A program made the translations under genes and the position numbers. A stretch of 58,508 nt of DNA from a bacterium. Lineage in GTDB: Bacteria; Patescibacteriota; Dojkabacteria; JAKAPS01; JAJZLI01. The notes beneath the pieces were generated by a model. It saw only the letters and a list, made by a program, of their open reading frames with translations. It was not told the origin of the DNA and searched no databases. Position 1 is the first letter of the stretch. Each line of letters opens with the position of its first letter. Positions 9,076-58,508 of this stretch are shown here, piece by piece. The DNA lies in contig JAJYFR010000006.1 of NCBI GenBank assembly GCA_021785355.1, forward strand, positions 1 through 58,508, in the 5' to 3' direction.

Positions 9076-9156
9076 ATATAAAGTATCTGTCATATGTAAT
9101 CTACATAGGCATTTCAATACATTCGGGATGTTTCTGTGGTGGGGTGTCGCGTTAAT

Positions 9157-9230
9157 TGACCTTGGCGGGATTTGAACCCGCGATTTTCAGGATGAGAACC
9201 TGGTGTCCTAGACCACTAGACGACAAGGCC
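9157..9230 (-). tRNA. tRNA-Glu(CTC)
   Basis: GGCCTTG...CAAGGTC acceptor stem, D-loop TAGTGGTCTAGGAC, anticodon loop TTCTCAT, T-arm GGTTCAAATCC; no encoded CCA. Confidence 0.95.
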
Positions 9231-9296
9231 ATAACAATAAAGAATTATATCATAAAATAAATTTACTTTTGTTATTTTTTTTAGTAACATAAACTC

Positions 9297-10064
9297 ATGA
9301 ATAATTCTTTGAAAGATTGGATTTTTCCAACCAAGAAAAATAACTTTAAATCACCTTTACTTAAAAATAAATCACTTACTGTTTACCTTATTTTCTTAAT
9401 TTTTATAAATATAATGTTACCATATTTCATATCATCAGGTAATATATCTTCTCTATCTTTATATAATACTATTAATAAGGACAGAAATTCTGCATCTTTA
9501 GCAAATCTTTCATTTAGTAGATCTCTTTCCTATTCAGCTTCAGAAATCATAGGAGATATATCAAAATATCAATATTTATCTTCAATAAATCCTTTAACAA
9601 ATTATTCTTATTACCATTTTATTAATACTAATAAATTTAGTAATGTGAATGAGATAATTTTAAAAAATTATATATCTCTAAATTCAGCTAATTCAAATAT
9701 ATTGAATCTTTATAAAAATGAAATTCTTAACTCAAGAATAAATGATATAGGTATAGCTGTTAAAAATATCAACTTTTATGGAAATACACAACAGATAATA
9801 ATAGTACTTACTGCAAAAGGAAATAATACTTCATCTCAACCAGCCTTAAATATATCTTCTAACCTAGGACTTATAGATTACACTATAATAACCTATACAG
9901 ATATGTTTATATTGATATTTTTAATATTCTTGATACTCTCTGACGTATTATTTTCTTATTATTACAATAATTTTAAAAATAAAAGTATTCCATATATGAA
10001 TTTAATACTTTCTTTTATAACCATGATAGTCGTATTAATATTAATATTGGGGGTAATATTATGA
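9297..10064 (+). CDS. Membrane protein with a degenerate CAP/SCP-like domain
   Basis: WIFPTKKNNFK leader, TM helix, INKDR...LANLS...EILNSRINDIGIAV, C-terminal TMs. Confidence 0.6.
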   Translation: MNNSLKDWIFPTKKNNFKSPLLKNKSLTVYLIFLIFINIMLPYFISSGNISSLSLYNTINKDRNSASLANLSFSRSLSYSASEIIGDISKYQYLSSINPLTNYSYYHFINTNKFSNVNEIILKNYISLNSANSNILNLYKNEILNSRINDIGIAVKNINFYGNTQQIIIVLTAKGNNTSSQPALNISSNLGLIDYTIITYTDMFILIFLIFLILSDVLFSYYYNNFKNKSIPYMNLILSFITMIVVLILILGVIL

Positions 10065-14257: not shown

Positions 14258-15517
14258 TTAAAATACAGCTGCAAAAAAGATATTTTGAGAGTTATAACTC
14301 AAACCTCCTCCCATATTTTGACCAAATGTTAGATTTGGACCAAACCAAGGATCTTGCATTGTTCCACTAGCACCTACTGCACCCGTCATTGTAACAAAAT
14401 GTGTACCAAAAGAATTATCTGGAACATAAAAACCTATGACTACAGGAGAGGAAGGAGATGCATATGCATCAATTTGAGAAATTGAAGGATTCCAAATTAC
14501 ATCTTGTACTCCAGGAAGACTATAAAACTGAGCTCCATTATTCCAATATTGTAGAGCTGTTTGAGAAAGAGGTGTAAAATTACTATTTCCTATTAAATTT
14601 TCAGCCATTATTATAGCAATTAAAGAACAGCCTGCACTCGCATATGTATCACCAGAAGAATCTAGTACATAATTACCCCATTGAGAACATTCTTGAGAAA
14701 AATATGCACCTTGTTGACAAGGAACATTCAAAGGGATAGTACCTGGGACTCCTTCTGAAAGCTCTAATCTTGATAATTTTTGCAATATAGACTGTTGTTG
14801 TTGATAGAGAGAATTATTTGAACTCTGAATACTATTACTCTGGTTAATAAGATTTGCTTGTTCATTTTTTAAAGTATTTTGATCTGCTATCAAAGAATTT
14901 TGAGTAGACACTTCTTGTGTTAATAAGCTTTGTGCATTCTGTTGTTTTAGTGCAACAGACGCTTTATTTTTATTTAAAGCATTTACAGTGACATTTAATT
15001 TTTGAACTAGTGTATTTTCATGCGTCATTGTAGATTTAAAATAGACTACTGATACCATTGCATTAGTTATATTTGAATTTCCCATAAACAAAGTTACTGG
15101 AGGTATATATGTTTGTTCATATCCAGATCTAGCATTAGAATCTATTTGCACTTTTATAGCATCTATTTTGACTTGTTCTTGTGCTATTTGAATATTTAAT
15201 TGATTAATTTGGGAATTTAGTGCAGCTACTTGAGCTCTTTCATTATTAACTAAAACTTCTTTCTGAAAAATTAATTGTTGATAAGCATTAATTTGAGGTT
15301 GAAGGTTCGAACTTTCTGTATTAAATGTATTTATTTTCTGTTGATTTTGATTTATCAAATTCTGAATATCATTATATTGTTGTTGTAATGAACTTATAGA
15401 TGAAGTTGCGTTAACTACACCCGGCTTATAAAGCATGAAAGGATATACAGCTATAAGAAACGAAAGTACAGAAAATATTGAGATCCTTATCTTTTTATTA
15501 GAAAATATCTTTTTCAT
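14258..15517 (-). CDS. Secreted coiled-coil protein with a C-terminal peptidase C39-like domain (probable FtsEX-associated hydrolase)
   Basis: Signal/anchor, Q/N-rich coiled coil, YFSQ...W...AGCSLIA, HFV, DPW; downstream of ftsX. Confidence 0.75.
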   Translation of the reverse strand: MKKIFSNKKIRISIFSVLSFLIAVYPFMLYKPGVVNATSSISSLQQQYNDIQNLINQNQQKINTFNTESSNLQPQINAYQQLIFQKEVLVNNERAQVAALNSQINQLNIQIAQEQVKIDAIKVQIDSNARSGYEQTYIPPVTLFMGNSNITNAMVSVVYFKSTMTHENTLVQKLNVTVNALNKNKASVALKQQNAQSLLTQEVSTQNSLIADQNTLKNEQANLINQSNSIQSSNNSLYQQQQSILQKLSRLELSEGVPGTIPLNVPCQQGAYFSQECSQWGNYVLDSSGDTYASAGCSLIAIIMAENLIGNSNFTPLSQTALQYWNNGAQFYSLPGVQDVIWNPSISQIDAYASPSSPVVIGFYVPDNSFGTHFVTMTGAVGASGTMQDPWFGPNLTFGQNMGGGLSYNSQNIFFAAVF

Positions 15518-49024: not shown

Positions 49025-50434
49025 ATGAGAGTAAGAACACGAATTGCTCCATCACCTACCGGAGATCCTCATATAGGAACGATATATCAGGCACTATTTG
49101 ATTATGCATATGCAAAACAAAATAAAGGAAATTTTATTTTAAGAGTTGAAGATACTGACAGAGAAAGATTTGTAGAAGGAGCAACTCAAAAAATCTTATC
49201 TTCTCTTAAGTGGTTTTCTATTGAACCTGATGAAAGTCCTGTGCATGGAGGAGATTTTGGACCATATGTTCAATCAGAGAGATTAGATATATATAAAAAA
49301 TATATTAACGATTTAATATTAAAAAAAGAGGCATATTTGTGTTTTTGTACAAAAGAAAGACTTGATCATATAAGAGAAGAACAAATAAAAAATAAACAAC
49401 AGCCTAAATATGATAAACATTGCTTAAATCTTACAAAAAAAGAGATTGATGATCTAATAAATAAAGGTACACCTTCTGTTGTTAGATTAAATGTCAAACC
49501 AGGAATTGATATTATTTTTAATGACCTTATCAGAGGAGAAATCAAAATTAAGACTGATTCATTTGATGATCAAGTATTATTAAAATCTGATGGATATCCA
49601 ACTTATCATGCAGCAGTAGTAATAGATGATCATTTAATGAAAATAACTCATATTATAAGAGGGGAAGAATGGATATCTTCTACTCCAAAACATATACTTT
49701 TATATAAAGCTTTTGAATGGGATATTCCTATGTTTGCTCATTTATCTTTACTTAGAAATAGAGATAAATCAAAAATATCTAAAAGACATAATAATACATC
49801 CATAGATTGGTACAAAAAAGAAGGATATCTTCCTGAAGCATTAACTAATTATCTTTTATTATTAGGGTGGTCTCATCCAGAAGGAAAAGAAGTATATTCT
49901 TTAGATGAATTTATTAAAAAATTTTCATTTGATAGGGTAAGTAAAGGTGGTCCTATCTTTGATATAGATAAACTTAATTGGATAAATGGTGTATATATAA
50001 GATCTAAAAGTGTTATTGAAATAAAAAAACTTATAAAGCCTTATTTAATATATGATATTGAAAATAAGAAATTAGAAGAGATTATAAAACTTATACAAGA
50101 TAGATTAAAAAAATTATCAGAAATAAATGATTTAATATCATTTTTTGTAGAAACACCTCAAATAGATCAAGAAATTTTGGAAAACATAATATCTAAAGAT
50201 AAAATAGATGAAATATGTGATATATCATATAAAACTATTGAGGATAAAGGTATTAATCGTGACACAGAAGAAACTCTTAGAAATTATGCTATAGAAAAAG
50301 GATATAATATTGGAGATTTCTTTATGATTATAAGAATAGTTACAACTGGTAAAAAAGCTACACCACCTTTATTTGATACATTATCTATAATAGGGAAAAA
50401 AGAAACATTAAAAAGGCTAAAGAATGGGAGATAG
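49025..50434 (+). CDS. gltX: Glutamyl-tRNA synthetase
   Basis: RIAPSPTGDPHIG, RVEDTD, KISKR. Confidence 0.97.
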   Translation: MRVRTRIAPSPTGDPHIGTIYQALFDYAYAKQNKGNFILRVEDTDRERFVEGATQKILSSLKWFSIEPDESPVHGGDFGPYVQSERLDIYKKYINDLILKKEAYLCFCTKERLDHIREEQIKNKQQPKYDKHCLNLTKKEIDDLINKGTPSVVRLNVKPGIDIIFNDLIRGEIKIKTDSFDDQVLLKSDGYPTYHAAVVIDDHLMKITHIIRGEEWISSTPKHILLYKAFEWDIPMFAHLSLLRNRDKSKISKRHNNTSIDWYKKEGYLPEALTNYLLLLGWSHPEGKEVYSLDEFIKKFSFDRVSKGGPIFDIDKLNWINGVYIRSKSVIEIKKLIKPYLIYDIENKKLEEIIKLIQDRLKKLSEINDLISFFVETPQIDQEILENIISKDKIDEICDISYKTIEDKGINRDTEETLRNYAIEKGYNIGDFFMIIRIVTTGKKATPPLFDTLSIIGKKETLKRLKNGR

Positions 50435-50496
50435 TTTAACGGTAAAACGCTACGCTCTGAACGTAGTAAGTCTAGGTTCGATTCCTAGTCTCCCAG
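50425..50496 (+). tRNA. tRNA-Gln(CTG)
   Basis: TGGGAGA/TCTCCCA acceptor stem, anticodon arm CTACG-CTCTGAA-CGTAG, GGTTCGATTCC; overlaps the gltX 3' end. Confidence 0.95.
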
Positions 50497-50576
50497 AAAT
50501 TATCTATAGACTAAAATTCTATGTATGGACATATAAATATGTTTTATTTTCTGTAATTGTTTGATATACTTTAATT

Positions 50577-50756
50577 ATGAGTAAAGAAGAGAATAAGAAA
50601 CTTATAAAATTATACCAAGAGTATAGACAAAGAAAAATATTGAAAGAGGATGTCTTACAATTTTCACGTGATTTTATGCCTGAAATGATTTATCGTACAA
50701 CTAAATTAGAAGGTGAGCCTGTTACAAGACAAATGGTATCTTTACTATTTAAATAA
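50577..50756 (+). CDS. Putative Fic antitoxin (VbhA/FicA-like; not in ORF track)
   Basis: 59 aa MSKEENKK...IYRTTKLEGEPVTRQMVSLLFK; (S/T)xxxEG inhibitory motif; TAATG overlap with Fic. Confidence 0.78.
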   Translation: MSKEENKKLIKLYQEYRQRKILKEDVLQFSRDFMPEMIYRTTKLEGEPVTRQMVSLLFK

Positions 50757-51388
50757 TGGTCAAAAGTGGTACGAAACCTAAAGGCGCAACATCATATAAA
50801 GATACAGCTTTTGGAATTATTTCTCGAGAAGAACTTATTAAGCTTGAGATTGAAGGGATAAAGAGAGGACTAGAATATTTATATGATCTAGTGCAAAAAC
50901 AAGAACAGGTTGCAATTACTTCAGAATTAATAACGAAACTTCATGAAATTTCTTTTGGTTGGATTTTTCCTAAATGGGCAGGAAAATATAGAACAATTCA
51001 AGTAACATTTTCTGATAAAGAAGCTCCACCATATTATCAAGTATCAGAATTAATGTTCAATTTCTCTAAAGATATAGAATCACGGTTACAAAATCTCCCT
51101 ACTCCAGATAAAGAAAACTTTATTTTTGAAATAATATCCTTATCAGCTTGGTTTCAACATAGATTTGTTTTTATTCATCCATTCCAAGATTACAATGGGA
51201 GGACAGCACGAATGCTAACGACTTTCATATTACTACAATTCAAACTACCCTCTATTGAATTAAAAGCAGATACAGGAGATGACAGGAAACAATATCTTAA
51301 AGCAATGAGGAAAGCAGATGATGGTGATTATAAACTTCTTGAAAGACTTATTAGCCGAGCACTAACAGACAGTCTTAATCATATTTAA
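50756..51388 (+). CDS. Fic-family adenylyltransferase toxin
   Basis: WAGKYRT, IHPFQDYNGRTAR. Confidence 0.93.
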   Translation: MVKSGTKPKGATSYKDTAFGIISREELIKLEIEGIKRGLEYLYDLVQKQEQVAITSELITKLHEISFGWIFPKWAGKYRTIQVTFSDKEAPPYYQVSELMFNFSKDIESRLQNLPTPDKENFIFEIISLSAWFQHRFVFIHPFQDYNGRTARMLTTFILLQFKLPSIELKADTGDDRKQYLKAMRKADDGDYKLLERLISRALTDSLNHI

Positions 51389-51457
51389 TTCTATTATTTT
51401 TCATCATATCTAATTTATCTAGTTTTTCAACGGTTGAAATGAGATTTTTAAAAATGG

Positions 51458-51484
51458 GGTTCCACATACGGGACAGCTTTCCAG
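51458..51484 (+). repeat. att-like repeat of the tRNA-Gln array (site Q1, most divergent)
   Basis: GGTTC-N15-TTTCCAG(AAA) versus tRNA GGTTC-N10-CTCCCAG(AAA). Confidence 0.55.
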
Positions 51485-51619
51485 AAAATAATATCTATTA
51501 ATTTATATATTCAATTTATTCTTTTAAATCCGTATGAAATAGCAATTTGCTATGTATGGCAAAGACAATATTAATAATTAATGTTAGAATTCAATCAATT
51601 ATTTTATTGATTAAATAGT

Positions 51620-52357
51620 ATGTATAATATAACTTTATCTGGAAGCTTTAGGAAACATTTAAAAGAGATTGGGGAGGTTAAAAATATTTTTGAGAAAGAG
51701 CAAAACATAATATTATCTCCAAAATTTCTTGATACAAAAAATTCTCAAGAAGAATTTGTTTTGTTTGAAGAAGAAAAAAGTACATCCCCAAAGACTCTCG
51801 AAAATTTACATTTAAATGCAATTTCTAAATCGGATTTTCTTTATTTAGTTAATCCAAAAGGATATATTGGTAATTCTGCTACTATGGAAATTGGTTATGC
51901 AATATCAAGAGGAATTCCTATATATTCATATGAAAAATCTGAAGAATTTATATTAAACTTATATATTGAAAAATATGGAGATCCTAAAGAAATACTCTCT
52001 TATCATAAAAAACATTATGAAAAGAGAAGACAAGATAATTTTTCCAAATCTTTAGGATTAAAAGAATTACAAGAGTATATATCTGTAAAAGTAAAAGAGA
52101 GAGGATTTGAAGATGAAAGTGCAAAAGATTTATTAGTTCTTTTAATGGAAGAGGTAGGAGAGTTTGCAAAAGCAATAAGAAAATATTCAGGAATAAAAAT
52201 AGATAGTGAGAAAAAGGAAAAATATCCAGCTTTGCAAGAAGAAATTGCAGATGTATTAATTTATATAATTGATCTTGCAAATATATTAAATATTGATTTA
52301 GATGAAAGCTATAGAATAAAAGAAGATATCAATGATTCTAGATTTTGGAATAAATAA
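51620..52357 (+). CDS. Fusion of a nucleoside 2-deoxyribosyltransferase-like domain and a MazG NTP pyrophosphohydrolase
   Basis: N-terminus ITLSGSF...HLNAISKSDFLYLVNPKGYIGNSATMEIGYA; C-terminus LMEEVGEFAKAIRK...EEIADVLIY. Confidence 0.85.
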   Translation: MYNITLSGSFRKHLKEIGEVKNIFEKEQNIILSPKFLDTKNSQEEFVLFEEEKSTSPKTLENLHLNAISKSDFLYLVNPKGYIGNSATMEIGYAISRGIPIYSYEKSEEFILNLYIEKYGDPKEILSYHKKHYEKRRQDNFSKSLGLKELQEYISVKVKERGFEDESAKDLLVLLMEEVGEFAKAIRKYSGIKIDSEKKEKYPALQEEIADVLIYIIDLANILNIDLDESYRIKEDINDSRFWNK

Positions 52358-52365
52358 TTATTGAT

Positions 52366-52953
52366 ATGAACAAAATTTTATTAATATCAGGTCCTTCTGG
52401 TATAGGTAAAAGTTATATATTAAAAAAATTGATTTCTAGCTCATCTCAGTATGAAGCTATATTATCAACTACAACTAGAGAAATGAGAGAAGGTGAGTCT
52501 GATGGAATAGACTATGAATTCTTAACTAGAAATGAATATGTTAACTCTAAACAAAAGTTTTTTATGGATAATTATTTTTTTAATAATTTTTATGGCATTA
52601 AGAAAAAAGTGGTAGATGATATTTTGGAAAAGAGAAAAATTCCAGTAGGAATAATTTATACTCCTGTGATTCATCAATTTTTAAAAGCTTATCCAGATGC
52701 TTTAACTATATTTCTATATCCGCAAAACATAGATTTATGGAAAGAAAATTTATTGAAAAGAGATGGAAGTTTAGACAGATATCAATATGCGTTAGATGAA
52801 TTAAGTAAATGGGAAAATGACTATAGTCGATATTATAATAAAGTATATTATATAAATTCTAATAATGATGATAGAACAATAATTAATGAGATCAATCACT
52901 ATTTTGATATTTACAGGGATAGGGAGGGGAGTATAAAGGAAGAATTTCATTAA
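52366..52953 (+). CDS. Guanylate kinase-like protein
   Basis: ISGPSGIGKS, STTTREMREGESDGIDYEFLT, FYG. Confidence 0.87.
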   Translation: MNKILLISGPSGIGKSYILKKLISSSSQYEAILSTTTREMREGESDGIDYEFLTRNEYVNSKQKFFMDNYFFNNFYGIKKKVVDDILEKRKIPVGIIYTPVIHQFLKAYPDALTIFLYPQNIDLWKENLLKRDGSLDRYQYALDELSKWENDYSRYYNKVYYINSNNDDRTIINEINHYFDIYRDREGSIKEEFH

Positions 52954-53053
52954 TAGTCTTGATTGATTTCTTTATATCTATTTCTGAAAATATGTTAGAG
53001 AATAATAAAATACAAGATTTAAAAAAATTTAATAGATACTATAGTAAGTGTTA

Positions 53054-53132
53054 TGTTGTCAAACCATTAAGATTGAGAATGGAAATTGACGAAAACAGGA
53101 GAGTTTTCTATGATCTTAATGGTTTGACAACA
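53054..53132. mobile_element. 79-bp MITE-like element
   Basis: Perfect 20-bp terminal IRs TGTTGTCAAACCATTAAGAT; one end recurs at 4198-4223. Confidence 0.75.
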
Positions 53133-53310
53133 AAATACCTATTTATTGTATTCCTATTCACTAGTACTATTTTGCTACTTTGCGTCGCATTTATATCACT
53201 TGCAAAACATCTTATTAGTAACTGAAATTTTCTTCTAGAAATACGTACCCTTTTTTACTTTCATTATCTAGATTTTAAGATATTTTATATCTCTTATCTA
53301 GGCTACACCC
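53133..53310 (-). pseudogene. IS1595-family left end and transposase N-terminal relic
   Basis: Minus strand reads RISRRKFQLLIRCFASDINATQSSKIVLVNRNTINRYF; upstream end GGGTGTAGCCTAGATAAG. Confidence 0.65.
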
Positions 53311-53345
53311 TATTTTATTCTCTAACTTACACATATCACATTAAA

Positions 53346-53372
53346 AGTTCGAATAATGTCAACAGTCCCCAG
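53346..53372 (+). repeat. att-like repeat of the tRNA-Gln array (site Q2)
   Basis: AGTTC-N15-TCCCCAG. Confidence 0.65.
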
Positions 53373-53475
53373 TTAACTCTTTTCAACCATGTATGAATAA
53401 CTTTTTAGTAAGTAGTTCAAGTTGTTATATAAAAACTGAGATCTATTTTTATTTTGAATATGTTATAATATTTGT

Positions 53476-53760
53476 ATGAATAAAATTAATTACACACTAC
53501 CAGTTTTAATATTTAAGGAAGACGACCTTTTTGTTGCATATACTCCTGCTTTAGATTTATCTACTGTCGGAGATACTTATGATAAAGCATTAAAAAACTT
53601 TCGTGAAGCTAGTGGCATATTTTTTGAAGAAGTTTTAAAAAAAGGAACTTTAGAAGAAGTTTTAATGGAGTATGGATGGAAGAAAACAGGAAAAACTTTT
53701 GAACCACCAATACAGATATCAAGTGAACCTGTTAATATAACAGTTCCAAGCAGAAGATGA
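53476..53760 (+). CDS. HicB-like antitoxin
   Basis: IFKEDDLFVAYTPALDLSTVGDT..KALKNFREA. Confidence 0.88.
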   Translation: MNKINYTLPVLIFKEDDLFVAYTPALDLSTVGDTYDKALKNFREASGIFFEEVLKKGTLEEVLMEYGWKKTGKTFEPPIQISSEPVNITVPSRR

Positions 53761-53978
53761 AACCTATATCATGGAAAGAATTTGATAAATTTCTACTTTA
53801 TGTAGGTTGTATTTATGATAGACAAAAAGGAGATCATAGAATATATTGGAGAAGTGATTTAAAAAGACCTATTGTATTACCCATGTATAAAAATCTCCCA
53901 AAATTTGTTATTAAGAATAATATAAGATTACTTGGGCTTACCAATAAAGAGTATTTAGAAATATTAAAGAAAATTTAA
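53757..53978 (+). CDS. HicA-family toxin
   Basis: RQKGDHRIY, RPIVLP. Confidence 0.9.
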   Translation: MKPISWKEFDKFLLYVGCIYDRQKGDHRIYWRSDLKRPIVLPMYKNLPKFVIKNNIRLLGLTNKEYLEILKKI

Positions 53979-54023
53979 TATAAATTTATACTTTACTGTT
54001 CCAATATATAATATAATTAAGTA

Positions 54024-54755
54024 ATGTATCAGAACAATAAAAATTATTATAGATTTAAATCAATTATTTCTAATTTACAGTTTATTGATAAATCAATATT
54101 GTTAAATAAAGACTTGATTTTAGAAGAAGATAAAGGAATTAAAATTTATTATGCTCCTTTTGAGTACATAAATAAGGATGCAAAAATTATAATTATAGGA
54201 ATTACTCCTGGATTTACTCAAATGCAAATTTCATATCGAGAATTAGTAAAAGGAATAAATAATAATTTGACTGATTTACAAATATTACAGAATGTTAAAA
54301 AAGAAGCTAGTTTTGCAGGAGTTATGAGAAAGAACTTAGTTGAAATGTTAGATGAGTTAAATATTAATACTTATCTAAAAATATCTACTACAGATAAACT
54401 CTTTAAAGAATATAACCATTTGTTACATAGTACTTCAGTAATAAAGTATCCAGTTTTTGTAAATAACCACAATTATACAGGTCATACTCCAAATATTTTA
54501 AAAACTAAAATTTTGTATGATTATATATTTGATGGATTAGGGAAAGAACTTACTTCAATACCTGACGCAATAATAATACCTCTAGGAAAAATTGTCCAAG
54601 ATTCTTTAAATTTATTGATATATGACAATAAAATTGATAGCAATAGGATATTGTTAAATTTTTCACATCCATCAGGAGCTAATGTAAATAGAAAAAATTT
54701 CTTTAATAAAAATAAAAAGCATTATGTTTCTCAGATAGAGAAATTATTTAAATAG
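54024..54755 (+). CDS. Uracil-DNA glycosylase-like superfamily protein
   Basis: YYAPFEYINKDAKIIIIGITPG, IIIPLG, HPSGAN. Confidence 0.75.
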   Translation: MYQNNKNYYRFKSIISNLQFIDKSILLNKDLILEEDKGIKIYYAPFEYINKDAKIIIIGITPGFTQMQISYRELVKGINNNLTDLQILQNVKKEASFAGVMRKNLVEMLDELNINTYLKISTTDKLFKEYNHLLHSTSVIKYPVFVNNHNYTGHTPNILKTKILYDYIFDGLGKELTSIPDAIIIPLGKIVQDSLNLLIYDNKIDSNRILLNFSHPSGANVNRKNFFNKNKKHYVSQIEKLFK

Positions 54756-54778
54756 TGAGTATCATTTCTTACTATTAG

Positions 54779-54805
54779 GGTTCTGACATTGTCCACAATA
54801 CCCTG
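54779..54805 (+). repeat. att-like repeat of the tRNA-Gln array (site Q3)
   Basis: GGTTC-N15-TACCCTG; TATTAGGGTTCTGACAT shared with 57085-57101. Confidence 0.75.
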
Positions 54806-54951
54806 TTGACAATAGTATAAAATTGTCAATGTGTACTACTCAATTATCTTGCTAAATCAATATAAACTTGAAATTTGCTATGCATGGCAAAGACAAAATT
54901 ATAAATAAGTACTACTATAGAGATAATAAAAAATAAGGAGGTGATTATATT

Positions 54952-55080
54952 ATGGAAACATTAGAGAAAGATATAATAACACCATTAGAGTGGTTAACAG
55001 ATGATAATGTTCAAAAAATAACCATGTGGCAAACATATTCTACCCATAAGGATGATGCAGATGATACTAATGATGATTAG
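54952..55080 (+). CDS. Putative graspetide (ATP-grasp RiPP) precursor peptide (not in ORF track)
   Basis: METLEKDIITPLEWLTDDNVQKITMWQTYSTHKDDADDTNDD, 42 aa; strong SD TAAGGAGGTGAT; directly upstream of the ATP-grasp gene. Confidence 0.82.
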   Translation: METLEKDIITPLEWLTDDNVQKITMWQTYSTHKDDADDTNDD

Positions 55081-55157
55081 AATAAATGGTAAAAGAGAAT
55101 AATTAAATATAAAAATAAAATTATTATCTACATTCTTTAATATTATTTTTTGTCTTT

Positions 55158-56984
55158 ATGATACATATAAGAAGAAAATATTATCTTGATATATACAAAG
55201 AGATATTCGTAATTTATTATAATAATGAAAGTGATCAACTTATTGATGAAGTCATTCAATATGTTTATGATAAATGTTTAGATGATATCTTTAAAGAGAT
55301 AGGTAAAATTTTCACATTTAAAGATAATCAATATTATTATGTTATGAAAACCGCAAAAATTGGGGTAAGATATAAACATAGTATTTATGTTTATAAAATT
55401 AATTTTAAACATAAATATAATTTACAATATGAAAAATTATTAAAAGAAATTCCAATGCTCTCTTCTGGTGAACTTATTCCATCCGTCAATGAAATGTACT
55501 TTAATAAAAAGAAAATGTATTTTGATAAAAAAAATCTGAGTTACTTTTCAACATATAAACTTTACAAAGATTTATTAAAGTTAAAATCTAATAAAGATAT
55601 AGAAGAAATATTTAATGGTAGAATAGAAGATTTAATACCTTTTTTAACATATTATAAATTTAGTAAAGTAATTTGTAACCTTTATTATTTAAAGACTCCT
55701 GATGAGAGACTAGATATAATAAAAGAATTTTTAACTTTTCCTTTTAATATTACGTACGATACTTTTTTATCTGAAATAATTGCTGAATTGGCATATTTGT
55801 CATCCATTAAAAAGTACAATGATGTTGCTAATAAATTGTTATCTCAGTTAATTAATAAGATAGAGAATGATGTATATATTCTTGCAGATACACAGATGGT
55901 AACCTTCAAAGGGTCATTTAACGAAAAAAATATTGATAAAATCTACAAATATATTAATAATAAAGTTGATTTATATTCACAAATAGACCCTGGAGGTTTT
56001 ATTGGAATTCTTAATAATCAAGATTTTTTTATATCAGATAAATATAAATATAAAAAAAGAAAGATATTAATTATATCAGAGCAAAATGACCCACATGTTG
56101 AGAGAGTGTTGAGTTTTATTAATCAGAAAAAATATCATGTAGATGTATTTGGTGTTAATGATTTAGAGAATGATGGGTATGTTGATACTCTATCAGAAAT
56201 GACTGGAGAATTTTTTGATACTGACAAAAGACATCATAGAGTATATGATATTTGTTGGTGGAGAAAACCAATATTTATTACTCCTTCTCAAAAATATTTA
56301 AAGAATATAAACCTATCTAATATTGCAAAAAAAGAAAAAATAAATTTTTTAGAAGGAATTATATTAAATATGTCAATAAAAAGTTGGGTGAATCATAAAT
56401 CAGATATGAAAAAAGCTTCAAATAAAATACATCAGTTAAGTCTTATAAGAATGAATATCCCTAGAACAGTAATTACTAATAAAAAGGAAGTCATTAAAAA
56501 AATATTTGAAGATAAGTTTATTATGAAAACGTTGCAATCTCAAAGTTTGGGATTAGAGGATGGTGTATTAAAAACAACTTTAACAAATATTAACGATATA
56601 GATAAAATTGATTTGAATTTTATGCCTGTTATCTGTCAGGAATTTATAGATAAAATTTGTGATATCCGAGTTACTATTGTTGGGAATAAAATATTTGCAG
56701 CTAAAATATTCTCACATTCAGAAAAATCAAAAATAGATTTTAGAACTGATTATAGTAGTTTAACTTATGAAAAATGTAAATTATCAAAAGATATAGAAGA
56801 TGAATTGTTGAGATTAAATAAATATTACAATCTTAATTATTCTGCCATTGATCTTATACAAGATAAAAATGGTGAGATATACTTTTTAGAATTAAATCCG
56901 AATGGTCAATATCTTTGGATTGAAGAGTCATTAACTCTTCCTATTTCAAAGAATATTGCATCTTTTTTAAAAGGAGATAAATAG
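55158..56984 (+). CDS. MvdC/MvdD-like ATP-grasp peptide macrocyclase with an unknown N-terminal domain of about 295 aa
   Basis: ILIISEQNDPH, WWRKP, WVNH..ASNKIHQL, IPRTVITN, QEFIDK..DIRVTIVG, IDFR, AIDLI, YFLELNPNGQYLWIE. Confidence 0.9.
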   Translation: MIHIRRKYYLDIYKEIFVIYYNNESDQLIDEVIQYVYDKCLDDIFKEIGKIFTFKDNQYYYVMKTAKIGVRYKHSIYVYKINFKHKYNLQYEKLLKEIPMLSSGELIPSVNEMYFNKKKMYFDKKNLSYFSTYKLYKDLLKLKSNKDIEEIFNGRIEDLIPFLTYYKFSKVICNLYYLKTPDERLDIIKEFLTFPFNITYDTFLSEIIAELAYLSSIKKYNDVANKLLSQLINKIENDVYILADTQMVTFKGSFNEKNIDKIYKYINNKVDLYSQIDPGGFIGILNNQDFFISDKYKYKKRKILIISEQNDPHVERVLSFINQKKYHVDVFGVNDLENDGYVDTLSEMTGEFFDTDKRHHRVYDICWWRKPIFITPSQKYLKNINLSNIAKKEKINFLEGIILNMSIKSWVNHKSDMKKASNKIHQLSLIRMNIPRTVITNKKEVIKKIFEDKFIMKTLQSQSLGLEDGVLKTTLTNINDIDKIDLNFMPVICQEFIDKICDIRVTIVGNKIFAAKIFSHSEKSKIDFRTDYSSLTYEKCKLSKDIEDELLRLNKYYNLNYSAIDLIQDKNGEIYFLELNPNGQYLWIEESLTLPISKNIASFLKGDK

Positions 56985-57090
56985 CGATAATAAAGATTTA
57001 TTAAATATTCTTAATCTTATTTTATAATAATATAATTTATAATTACTTAAATAAATAGTGATAAGGACTGGGATATGAATTTATTATTAG

Positions 57091-57117
57091 GGTTCTGACA
57101 TCGTCTAAGATACCCAG
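57091..57117 (+). repeat. att-like repeat of the tRNA-Gln array (site Q4)
   Basis: GGTTC-N15-TACCCAG. Confidence 0.75.
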
Positions 57118-57192
57118 CCAATGCGACAATTATTAACCTATCCAATATGACAAAAAGTATTATTTATTTAAAATACATGATAATATTGTCGT

Positions 57193-58185
57193 ATGAACTT
57201 AAATAAAAATACTAGTTACGTATTAATACATATTCTTAACGGGAATAATACTTCTAAAAAAATTAGCGAACAATTACGAAACGTCAATATTCGTTCTATT
57301 CAACGTGCTTTAATCAGACTAACAGACTTAGGATTATTGACACGTATCGGGACGAATCATCCTAATTACAGCATTAACTATGAAGTATTGTTAGACTTAA
57401 ACATTTCCGATAAATTACTAGAGAACGAAAATCGACCTAAAAGTATGTTCAATCATGAACTTATAGAATGGTTAACTAAATTATCTACTAAAGAACTAGA
57501 ATTGCTATTAAAAATCGATGATGATAAGTTAGTATTTAAACATCCCAATAAAATGACAGCTAAAGAACTGGAGTATCTTACTATTGAGCTTTCGTGGAAG
57601 TCGTCAGCTCTCGAGGGTAATACATATACATTATTAGATACTCAATTATTACTTCTAGAAGGAATAAAGGCTAAGAACAGAACAGAGTTTGAGACACAGA
57701 TGATTCTAAATCATAAAGATGCCATTGCTTTTATAGTTGAGAATAAAGAATTATTCTCCAATAACATAAAATTTAGAACAGTTGAAGAACTTCATAGGAT
57801 AATTGGTAAAAATCTAGGAATAGAGAGTGGAATTAGAAAACAAATTGTCAGGATCACTGCTAGCAACTATGAACCTCTATCTAACCCTCATCAATTAAGA
57901 GAAAATGGTGACTACATTTTGGAAATAATAAATAGAACGACTAACTCTTATATAAAAGCACTTCTGGCTCTTTCCCTAATTCCATATTTACAAATATTTG
58001 AAGACGGCAATAAAAGGACTGGAAGGATGTTCGCCAATGCCATATTAATAAGTCATATCAATAAAGGTTTTAGTCTACGCCAAACAGATGCTAAAAAACT
58101 GGCCATAGCTTATTTGGCTTTTTATGAATTCAACAGCATTCATGCTCTAAATAAGATTCTTAAAACTGAACTTCAATCAAACTAG
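57193..58185 (+). CDS. wHTH-Fic family protein
   Basis: N-terminal HTH (SIQRALIRL), SWKSSALEGNTY inhibitory helix, LQIFEDGNKRTGR. Confidence 0.9.
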   Translation: MNLNKNTSYVLIHILNGNNTSKKISEQLRNVNIRSIQRALIRLTDLGLLTRIGTNHPNYSINYEVLLDLNISDKLLENENRPKSMFNHELIEWLTKLSTKELELLLKIDDDKLVFKHPNKMTAKELEYLTIELSWKSSALEGNTYTLLDTQLLLLEGIKAKNRTEFETQMILNHKDAIAFIVENKELFSNNIKFRTVEELHRIIGKNLGIESGIRKQIVRITASNYEPLSNPHQLRENGDYILEIINRTTNSYIKALLALSLIPYLQIFEDGNKRTGRMFANAILISHINKGFSLRQTDAKKLAIAYLAFYEFNSIHALNKILKTELQSN

Positions 58186-58508
58186 GGTTGAGCTTCATGT
58201 CTTCCTAATGAATATGAGTATTTTTCCAATCTAAATTTATATACTGAAATACTAAGAATCAAGTAATCATAATTTAAACATTTTTTTAAATAATTAGTAT
58301 ATATGACATCTTCCACGATACACAGATTTGATTTTTTCCTATTTTGATTTTAAGAAAACAATTGATTTAGATTATATAAATAGGAGTTTGAATTGACTTA
58401 TATATTTTCATTGAATAATCTAGATAGATTGGATACAATATAAAATAGAGTTATGAATCAAAAACTTATACAAGCAAGTAAAAAGGTTATATTAGATTGT
58501 TGTTTAGA

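Follow-up and report, generated by a model that had tools for sequence, protein, structure and literature searches.

The window described here is an entire contig (JAJYFR010000006.1, C8 below) of 58,508 nucleotides from a Dojkabacteria genome (GCA_021785355.1, G000 below; 883 kb in 13 contigs, 26% G+C). Downstream of a gene for tRNA-Gln(CTG), five short sites (Q1 to Q5) split positions 50497-58325 into five co-directional gene blocks. We conclude that the region is probably a stack of five remnants of integrative elements, now without integrases, that entered at the tRNA gene's 3′ end by means of a large serine recombinase (LSR). Judged from the sequence, Q1 and Q2 to Q5 would be the severed 3′ tails of LSR genes and, at the same time, attP half-sites. 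This reading is carried by the site repeats and their distribution, their anchoring at tRNA genes, their coding nature, the continuity of their frame with LSR genes, a 5-nt offset between site and tRNA, and a graded series of LSR stubs. The initial annotation of the window had proposed an array of small co-directional blocks of mixed function, anchored at tRNA-Gln and separated by related short sites, and the analysis supports this. The anchor and the sites are as follows.

50425..50496, + strand: tRNA-Gln(CTG), the anchor of the array (ARAGORN; Rfam tRNA, 70 bits)
51388..51484, − strand: Q1, type B site, a ~97-nt repeat; its antisense reading ends ..GKLSRMWNPIFKNLISTVEKLDKLDMMKNNRI
51456-51484: candidate attP P arm of Q1, GGGGTTCC..TTTCCAG
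53338..53372, − strand: Q2, type A variant; antisense LGTVDIIRTFN, a match to the peptide motif
54771..54805, − strand: Q3, type A; antisense QGIVDNVRTLI; ends CCCTG
57083..57117, − strand: Q4, type A; antisense W-LGILDDVRTLI, then CCA
~58304..58325, − strand: Q5, degenerate or truncated type A; antisense LCIVEDV.., then breaks off; nhmmer E 0.094

The 3′ part of the tRNA gene, GGTTCGATTCCTAGTCTCCCAG, is the presumed attB half-site. The four sites first proposed, Q1 to Q4, all have repeat copies elsewhere in the genome or in relatives, and Q5 is added here. Q1 had been thought the weakest, possibly a chance match. It is instead a real repeat of a family distinct from that of Q2 to Q4, with three further copies in the genome (87-91% identity, all ending CCAG, flanks unrelated) and one in genome G008 (E 9e-28). 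Q3 and Q4 are 86% alike, and a genome search with both gives seven more copies, mostly near contig ends. An ordinary repeat finder, which had been expected to miss the sites, does recover Q2 to Q4. A profile built from nine copies of the type A family (33-35 nt) finds nine strong members in the genome (E <= 1.6e-8), more at E 8e-5 to 2e-3, and weaker members including Q5. Q2 matches this profile poorly (E 6.3). It is identical at 35/35 nt to positions 3993-4027 of contig C4, and the flanks are unrelated on both sides. Q5 together with ~35 nt of its right flank is 87% identical to a site in genome G001 (L044 +3406). The idea that this flank is conserved chromosome was rejected, as the similarity to G001 spans just 60 nt.

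Near-identical units of hicBA plus a site lie at contig ends (C3 334887-335065; C10 1-421 and 15206-15698; C4 1-251; C7 1-138), with 93-100% identity over 97-441 nt. In these units one left flank is joined to differing right flanks, and the assembly breaks at the repeats.

We compared nine family genomes, including G000, and 32 genomes outside the family. In all nine, and in two further Patescibacteria genomes, the repeats stand behind tRNA-Gln and tRNA-Ser genes. A degenerate pattern of the type A core is found in 8/8 of the other family genomes and in 1/32 outside the family (one match, with one mismatch); the reversed pattern, used as a control, has 0 matches in 40/41 genomes. With a stricter pattern and one genome for each of 185,579 species we find 15 loci, 14 in metagenome-assembled genome records of Patescibacteria type and one, in Ruegeria, that looks like chance.

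The sites are anchored at tRNA genes. Sites that share the orientation of the tRNA are found downstream of tRNA-Gln(CTG) in the window, G008 and G042 (48% G+C), and downstream of tRNA-Gln(TTG) on contig C1 and in G006 and G041 (34% G+C). In G001, sites of a Ser type that end TCTCCCG follow tRNA-Ser genes, and Ser-type sites on contig C2 of G000 share right flanks with two tRNA-Ser genes. Tandem arrays are also present on C1 and in G006, G008, G041, G042 and G001.

Antisense codons and serine recombinase genes

The type A sites vary in the manner of coding sequence. In 29 strong sites from G000 and its relatives, LGIVDDVRTLI is the reading of the antisense frame that begins with CTG (CAG in complement). 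The codon changes are GTG/GTA, GAC/GAT, GTC/GTT, AGA/CGA and CTA/CTT/TTA, mostly at third positions or AGA/CGA exchanges. Stops interrupt this frame in 2/29 sites, and the other two frames in 23/29 and 18/29. Over 319 codons there are 74 synonymous and 58 non-synonymous differences (control frames, 18/95 and 7/108), and the three codon positions, taken in order, have entropies of 0.64, 0.34 and 0.84. One pair of sites has 7 nt differences and encodes the same peptide. A scan of the six-frame translation with the peptide motif gives 16 matches, 14 of which are the sites, versus 2-6 in ten shuffles. The Ser-type sites read RETVDDIRTFI on the antisense strand. In the type B repeat, a single antisense frame stays open in 5/5 copies, as a 32-codon tail (..GKLSRRWNPIFKNLILTFEKLDKLDMMKNNRI).

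A Xer/dif-like or attC-like site, prompted by the small dyad ATCGT-CC-ACGAT in type A, was considered and dropped because the antisense codon pattern accounts for the same variation (AGA/CGA and others). A crossover at the centre of the dyad was suggested by C7 +114 and C3 -328024; both are equally explained as truncated tails and speak neither for nor against it.

The sites could also be elements that act at gene ends at the RNA level or in regulation, such as tRNA-like processing signals, terminators or operator sites. They do stand directly past the stop codons of co-directional genes, and the type A core holds the small dyad ATCG-TCCA-CGAT, but this dyad is broken in several members and the variation tracks codon positions of the opposite strand. 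The elements are also continuous with LSR reading frames, and the one Rfam match is the tRNA; a scan of 50300-58508 gives the tRNA and two chance-level matches only. We regard this explanation as extremely improbable.

The genome contains one serine recombinase, a 579-aa open reading frame (ORF) at C1 27976-29715 with a Resolvase domain (PF00239), which abuts tRNA-Gln(TTG). A terminal integrase, for which the initial annotation had advised a look beyond the window, is absent, and this sole serine recombinase stands at the other tRNA-Gln. Its 3′ end runs across tRNA-Gln(TTG) on the opposite strand (..GRGQLSG|MQGLEPQ..), and at the junction it has a GGG codon whose phase is that of the GGG at the start of the type B tail. 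Because the phase is the same, an excised circle would let this ORF continue into the type B tail. Since the tail in Q1 is in frame with an LSR that runs into the antisense strand of a tRNA, the attachment site would lie inside the 3′ end of the LSR gene. G001 has a second LSR (555 aa), whose reading runs into the antisense strand of tRNA-Gln(TTG) as ..W-L-G, the type A frame. In the same genome a 93-aa LSR stub adjoins tRNA-Gln(CTG). Database homologues of the G001 LSR carry PF00239, PF07508 and PF13408.

We examined 120 database relatives of the G001 LSR and 120 of the C1 LSR (P0001-P0240), from at least 1921 and at least 741 matches. Among the former, 48/120 end DSN or DSD, which is a translated antisense T-arm, and 23/120 keep an intact tail of the DDFRT type (for example ..WLRIVDDVRTII..). 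Among the latter, 88/120 end G[FLIV]EP and 3/120 carry a WNPI-type tail; P0133 has the intact tail ..CRWNPINRI... Because they consist of a translated antisense tRNA T-arm, the annotated C-termini of many LSR proteins would be products of integration and not native ends. The presence of both severed and intact tails among the relatives suggests that attP lies within the last codons of these genes and that the tail is cut off on integration.

LSR stubs form a graded series at the junctions, from the full gene on C1 of G000, through 93 aa (G001 C29) and ~35 nt, twice, after type A sites (G005), to 7 nt (G001 C19). The series fits a progressive loss of the integrase body, and also the tail of a newer element abutting the integrase end of an older one. 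Two candidates were discarded. A 248-aa ORF after site +9747 of G005, taken for a truncated LSR, has no LSR similarity, and LSR matches at residues 552-578 in other genomes are merely translated antisense tRNA.

Positions 14328-29640 of C1 hold an apparently complete 15-kb LSR element that spans from tRNA-Gln(TTG) to a type B tail. Its type B copy (14328-14434) is 15 kb downstream of the LSR, in the right orientation for the far end of the element. The cargo includes the LSR, helix-turn-helix genes, an SNF2/PLD helicase-nuclease, an Eco57I/MmeI-like methyltransferase and DUF3644. Beyond it, older sites of type A lie at 9693, 8867, 5446 and 243, with an EcoRI-type methylase and a GmrSD/HNH gene between them.

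The tRNA 3′ end and the proposed insertions

The initial annotation had implied that the sites are diverged copies of the tRNA 3′ end. The sequences do not support this. GGTTC and CCAG are the only letters common to a site and the 3′ end of tRNA-Gln, the type A profile does not match tRNA-Gln itself, and the stretch from GGTTC to CCAG takes up 27 nt in sites of either type, compared with 22 nt in tRNA-Gln, so that the sites are 5 nt longer. The pattern GTT[CT]-N17-CCCAG occurs 11 times in the genome, versus 0-4 times at each spacing of N13-16 and N18-21; the spacing in the tRNA is N12.

This 5-nt offset between repeat and tRNA matches the published attP/attB offset of serine integrases. In the part of their work that we draw on, Rutherford et al. 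(2013, PMC3783163) place the motif of the zinc-ribbon domain at attP positions 16-24, and 5 bp nearer the centre in attB. GGTTC may be part of such a motif. If it is, the spacing would put the crossover at the CC of CCAG. If the P arm of type B is set against the flank behind tRNA-Gln(TTG), the two would give GGACAGCT-N8-AGCTGTCC, a candidate for the imperfect dyad of P and P′ arms around a 2-bp crossover; no intact attP of these lineages was recovered, and the crossover is placed by spacing.

The pattern GTTC-N17-GGTCA occurs three times on the − strand of the window (5730, 7317 and 8278), downstream of and co-oriented with tRNA-Glu(CTC) at 9156-9231, and once more on C1 behind tRNA-Glu(TTC). 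Because the +5 spacing equals that of the tRNA-Gln case, the window probably holds a second array of the same kind at tRNA-Glu(CTC).

A classical tRNA island, in which a tyrosine integrase placed islands in tandem that later decayed, with direct repeats of the tRNA's 3′ terminus remaining as the sites, would agree with the ends of the sites, which are the final 4-5 nt of the cognate tRNA (Gln, CCCAG; Ser, CCCG), and with their position downstream of it in the same orientation. Two tyrosine recombinases are, moreover, conserved across the family. We hold this to be very improbable. The identity to the tRNA is confined to GGTTC and CCAG, the site profile misses the tRNA, the sites exceed the tRNA segment by 5 nt, and the core outside the tRNA letters is conserved across genera with codon-like variation. 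Where a recombinase gene adjoins tRNA-Gln, it encodes a serine recombinase. The window contains no tyrosine recombinase; G000 has two (PF00589), both on C3 and far from the arrays, and they are conserved single orthologues (two in most family genomes, one in G008, five in G005).

We return to the reading of the array as LSR element remnants, for which we propose the following course. The attP of an incoming element would lie inside the last codons of its LSR gene, and the crossover would fall in or beside CCAG at the tRNA 3′ end, so that the tRNA stays intact. The body of the LSR would land beside the tRNA and read into its antisense strand. The 3′ tail of the LSR, the P half-site of attP, would be left at the far end of the insert, and Q1 to Q5 would be such tails. 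Two LSR lineages may have contributed, type B (the 97-nt Q1) and type A (the 33-35-nt Q2 to Q5). Later arrivals at the same tRNA would push older inserts outward, and the LSR bodies would then be deleted, with cargo and tail remaining. We infer the position of the crossover, the order of insertion and the mode of LSR loss; some blocks may be mobilisable in trans still.

Several points weigh against this course of events. The window contains no LSR gene, no LSR stub and no recognisable P′ arm, and the right flanks of the sites are heterogeneous. No type A LSR is present in G000. Serine recombinases are found in 4/9 family genomes, and G006 has sites without one. The crossover dinucleotide is placed from spacing alone, and a crossover at the centre cannot give the left boundary of Q2, whose identity to the C4 copy covers exactly 35 nt between unrelated flanks. 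An age gradient along the array was considered and rejected as inconsistent between genomes; in G008 the site nearest to the tRNA is a degenerate one. To our knowledge, published serine integrases recombine attP with attB only. Under this rule, a tRNA that has a P′ arm behind it would not be expected to take a second insert, and the growth of a stack past the first insertion is unexplained by known serine-integrase behaviour. Public sequencing runs, which offered short, fragmentary assembled contigs only and are not informative on mobility, show neither an excised circle nor an empty site. In the same data, two runs of another study (X5 and X6) span the tRNA/block 1, Q1 and Q4 junctions without mismatch, and a run that may be the source gives the 35-nt Q2 unit as a contig of its own, at 41x versus 15x alongside. 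Three reported joints have sides of 22-27 nt and lie away from the sites; we disregarded them.

A different use of the same parts is a working cassette platform, a serine-recombinase analogue of an integron, in which blocks (cargo plus P arm), as small non-autonomous elements, are excised and re-inserted by an LSR in trans. The tRNA end would have the role of attI and the P arms that of attC, kept by selection and not as scars. We consider such a platform unlikely. It would account for the exact identity of Q2 to its C4 copy between unrelated flanks, and for conservation that ends exactly at the edge of the 33-35-nt half-site, though intact LSR tails extend 15-25 residues more. Site sequences kept across genomes of 26%, 34% and 48% G+C agree with it, as do the near-identical hicBA-plus-site units at several contig ends and the occurrence of the same hicBA pair, with differing neighbours, in arrays of three genomes. 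A circular mini-element would, however, need a conserved P′ half-site, which the right flanks do not have. G000 lacks a cognate type A LSR, and no serine recombinase was found in 5/9 family genomes. Several sites are degenerate or contain stops (Q5; G008 -2173), no circular junction or alternative joint appears in the public runs, and the codon-like variation suggests descent from coding sequence and not DNA-site selection alone.

The loss of tails, the re-completion of headless genes and the use of tails as docking sites can be joined in one reading, that Patescibacteria carry a cassette-capture system built on self-splitting LSRs. We put this forward as a speculative and rather doubtful extension. 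On entry the integrase would be parted from its own tail, and the insert would thereby be locked in place. The tail of the next arrival, set beside the older headless integrase gene, could re-complete that gene, and the tails would be retained for repeated use in docking. If this is true, small cassettes for defence, toxin-antitoxin pairs and peptide synthesis would be shuffled between species much as in integrons, by unrelated machinery.

Block contents and the surrounding locus

Every ORF of at least 59 aa between 50577 and 58185 is on the + strand, which is the strand of the tRNA; the cargo is thus co-directional with it, as first described. The remaining features of the locus are listed here.

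49025..50434, + strand: gltX-like gene, a 469-aa ORF, the conserved neighbour upstream of the tRNA
50497..51484, + strand: block 1, a 59-aa ORF (50577-50756) and a Fic protein (50756-51388); closed by Q1
51485..53372, + strand: block 2, a MazG protein (51620-52357), a guanylate-kinase-like protein (52366-52953) and an 88-aa ORF; closed by Q2
51545..51567: palindromic operator-like element TTTGCTATGTATGGCAAAGACAA, a repeat in the leader of block 2
53373..54805, + strand: block 3, a hicB-like gene (53476-53760), hicA (53757-53978) and a UDG-superfamily gene (54024-54755); closed by Q3
54806..57117, + strand: block 4, an operator-like element (54874-54896), a 42-aa ORF (54952-55080) and a 608-aa protein (55158-56984); closed by Q4
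57118..58325, + strand: block 5, a 330-aa Fic protein (57193-58185); closed by the degenerate Q5

Most of the cargo functions that were assigned at first are confirmed by Pfam and PDB comparisons, namely two Fic proteins, MazG, guanylate kinase, HicA, UDG and a graspetide-type ATP-grasp. HicB is a weak match (E 0.004), and these comparisons give no support to the "IS relics" or to an "NDT" half in the MazG protein. In block 1 the Fic protein matches PF02661 at 8e-14. The 59-aa ORF that overlaps its start has no Pfam match; it contains T-T-K-L-E-G, which we take to fit the inhibitory motif of Fic antitoxins, (S/T)xxxE(G/N). The 245-aa protein of block 2 has a C-terminal MazG domain (Pfam 4e-8), and its PDB matches to MazG and dCTPase are confined to residues 140-242. 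The neighbouring protein matches Guanylate_kin at 2e-18. A 29-nt inverted repeat (53045-53073 / 53113-53141; 90% complementary, 39 nt apart) lies within the 88-aa ORF of this block, and a related 60-nt stretch is present at C1 49926-49985.

In block 3, Pfam matches are HicA at 6e-10, UDG at 9e-7 and, weakly, HicB-like at 4e-3. The hicBA pair recurs with other neighbours in the arrays of G008 and G001, at 85-86% protein identity. The 42-aa ORF of block 4 is precursor-like, and the C-terminal half of the 608-aa protein is a graspetide-type ATP-grasp: residues 301-604 match CdnC in the PDB (7mgv, 5.7e-23; 5ig9, 3e-21), and a Pfam scan of the protein gives no match. A paralogous block of precursor and ATP-grasp, 69% identical to 54813-57011, is encoded at C3 318265-320425, with a partial further copy at C3 314564-315220. 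In block 5, residues 195-285 of the Fic protein match PF02661 at 2e-8.

The leaders of blocks 2 and 4 share an imperfect palindrome, TTTGCTATGYATGGCAAAGACAA (51545-51567 and 54874-54896). It is found elsewhere at C3 329313-329362, 332302-332350 and 312850-312947 and at locus L078 of G007. It keeps a fixed distance, ~60-95 nt, from the site or tRNA that precedes it, and is ~90 nt past tRNA-Gln(CTG) in G007. This palindrome is probably an operator or promoter element. What comes right after tRNA-Gln(CTG) in G007 is similar to the right flank of Q1 and to the initial 12 nt behind the tRNA in the window, and the palindrome, at equal distance, is part of this similarity.

The pair of gltX and tRNA-Gln(CTG) is present in 8/9 family genomes, G000 counted. 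The G008 counterpart of the gltX-like ORF, 73% identical by tblastx, matches tRNA-synt_1c at 1e-112. Related genomes differ by insertion or deletion at this locus, as the initial annotation led one to expect. The interval from tRNA-Gln(CTG) to tRNA-Ser(GGA) is 1.3 kb in G006, a genome of two contigs, 17 kb in G001 and ~25 kb in G000, where it comprises the end of C8 and C13 up to 17347. The last 99 nt of the window are identical to the first 99 nt of contig C13. Synteny with C13 resumes after the 1.3-kb interval in G006, and C13 from ~3000 onward is common to G001 and G005. Because of this shared part, the variable part consists of the array in the window and three more genes, which are a 352-aa ORF from 58453, a 232-aa ORF with an ABC-ATPase-like start and a 362-aa ORF. 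No recognisable site stands at the end of these three genes. It had been suggested that the array may continue past the window; in the first 17 kb of C13 there is no further site at E <= 100.

Comparison with known systems

If the array is what we propose, it would explain how accessory genes, here those of a graspetide cluster, nucleotide-pool enzymes, HicAB and Fic toxins, are exchanged at fixed hot spots in ultra-small genomes with almost no mobile-element genes, and why metagenome assemblies of these organisms break at the arrays. It also provides a search rule, GTTC-N17 followed by the last bases of the tRNA, or the antisense peptide (L/R)(G/E)(I/T)VDD(V/I)RT(L/F)I. LSR proteins that end in translated antisense tRNA would be a widespread annotation artefact. 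Serine integrases that naturally target tRNA genes and carry a self-truncation may be of interest for directionality control and for integrase prospecting. In the literature on the candidate phyla radiation (CPR) and Patescibacteria we found, at the level of titles and abstracts, no description of this type of array.

The closest published case is that of the Dehalococcoides ssrA islands (McMurdie et al. 2011, PMC3146451), as far as the sections of that paper used here describe them. They are tandem islands behind a tmRNA gene and are bounded by 3′-end repeats. Beside attL, and on the reverse strand, is a serine recombinase of ~540 aa; the T-loop/3′ region is where insertion takes place, and a conserved motif that does not match the target gene stands just upstream of the repeat. 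Some have no integration module and are termed possible cis-mobilisable elements, so that the tandem layout and the recombinase-less members are the same as here. In those sections (PMC3146451) the target is the tmRNA gene, the islands extend over many kb and the repeat is 20 bp; here the targets are tRNA-Gln and tRNA-Ser (also tRNA-Glu), the blocks measure 1-2.3 kb and hold one to three genes, and only 4-5 nt are identical to the target. The site here appears to lie inside the LSR frame, with the gene split, and no such splitting is noted in the same sections (PMC3146451). The host here is a Patescibacteria lineage.

In SCCmec and the composite SCC and pseudo-SCC elements, CcrAB or CcrC elements stack at the 3′ end of rlmH, with recombinase-less members between short site repeats. 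They resemble the array here in that elements of a serine recombinase are stacked at the 3′ end of one conserved gene, and differ from it in their protein-coding target, unsplit ccr genes and much larger elements. The SSV-type ("suicidal") tyrosine integrases of archaeal viruses have attP within the integrase gene, which is split on integration at a tRNA gene. In our case the integrase is a bacterial LSR and just the last 11-32 codons would be cut off. The mark of a self-splitting integrase, an ORF that continues in frame across attP, is supported by the reading frames of both type A and type B. An LSR adjacent to an att junction is found at C1 and in G001, outside the window. Tandem sites here do not contain a displaced fragment identical to the 3′ part of the tRNA, as tRNA islands of the Islander type do.

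The array is like an integron in its fixed entry point, its short co-directional cassettes, mostly of a single function and rich in toxin-antitoxin pairs, and the short conserved site that closes each of them. The attC sites of integrons are imperfect hairpins of 57-141 nt with R″/L″-L′/R′ boxes. Compared with that definition, the sites here are 33-35 or 97 nt long, former coding sequence and without a conserved hairpin. The IntI-type tyrosine recombinase of integrons is absent from the array, the PF00589 genes being on C3 only, and the anchor here is a tRNA gene.

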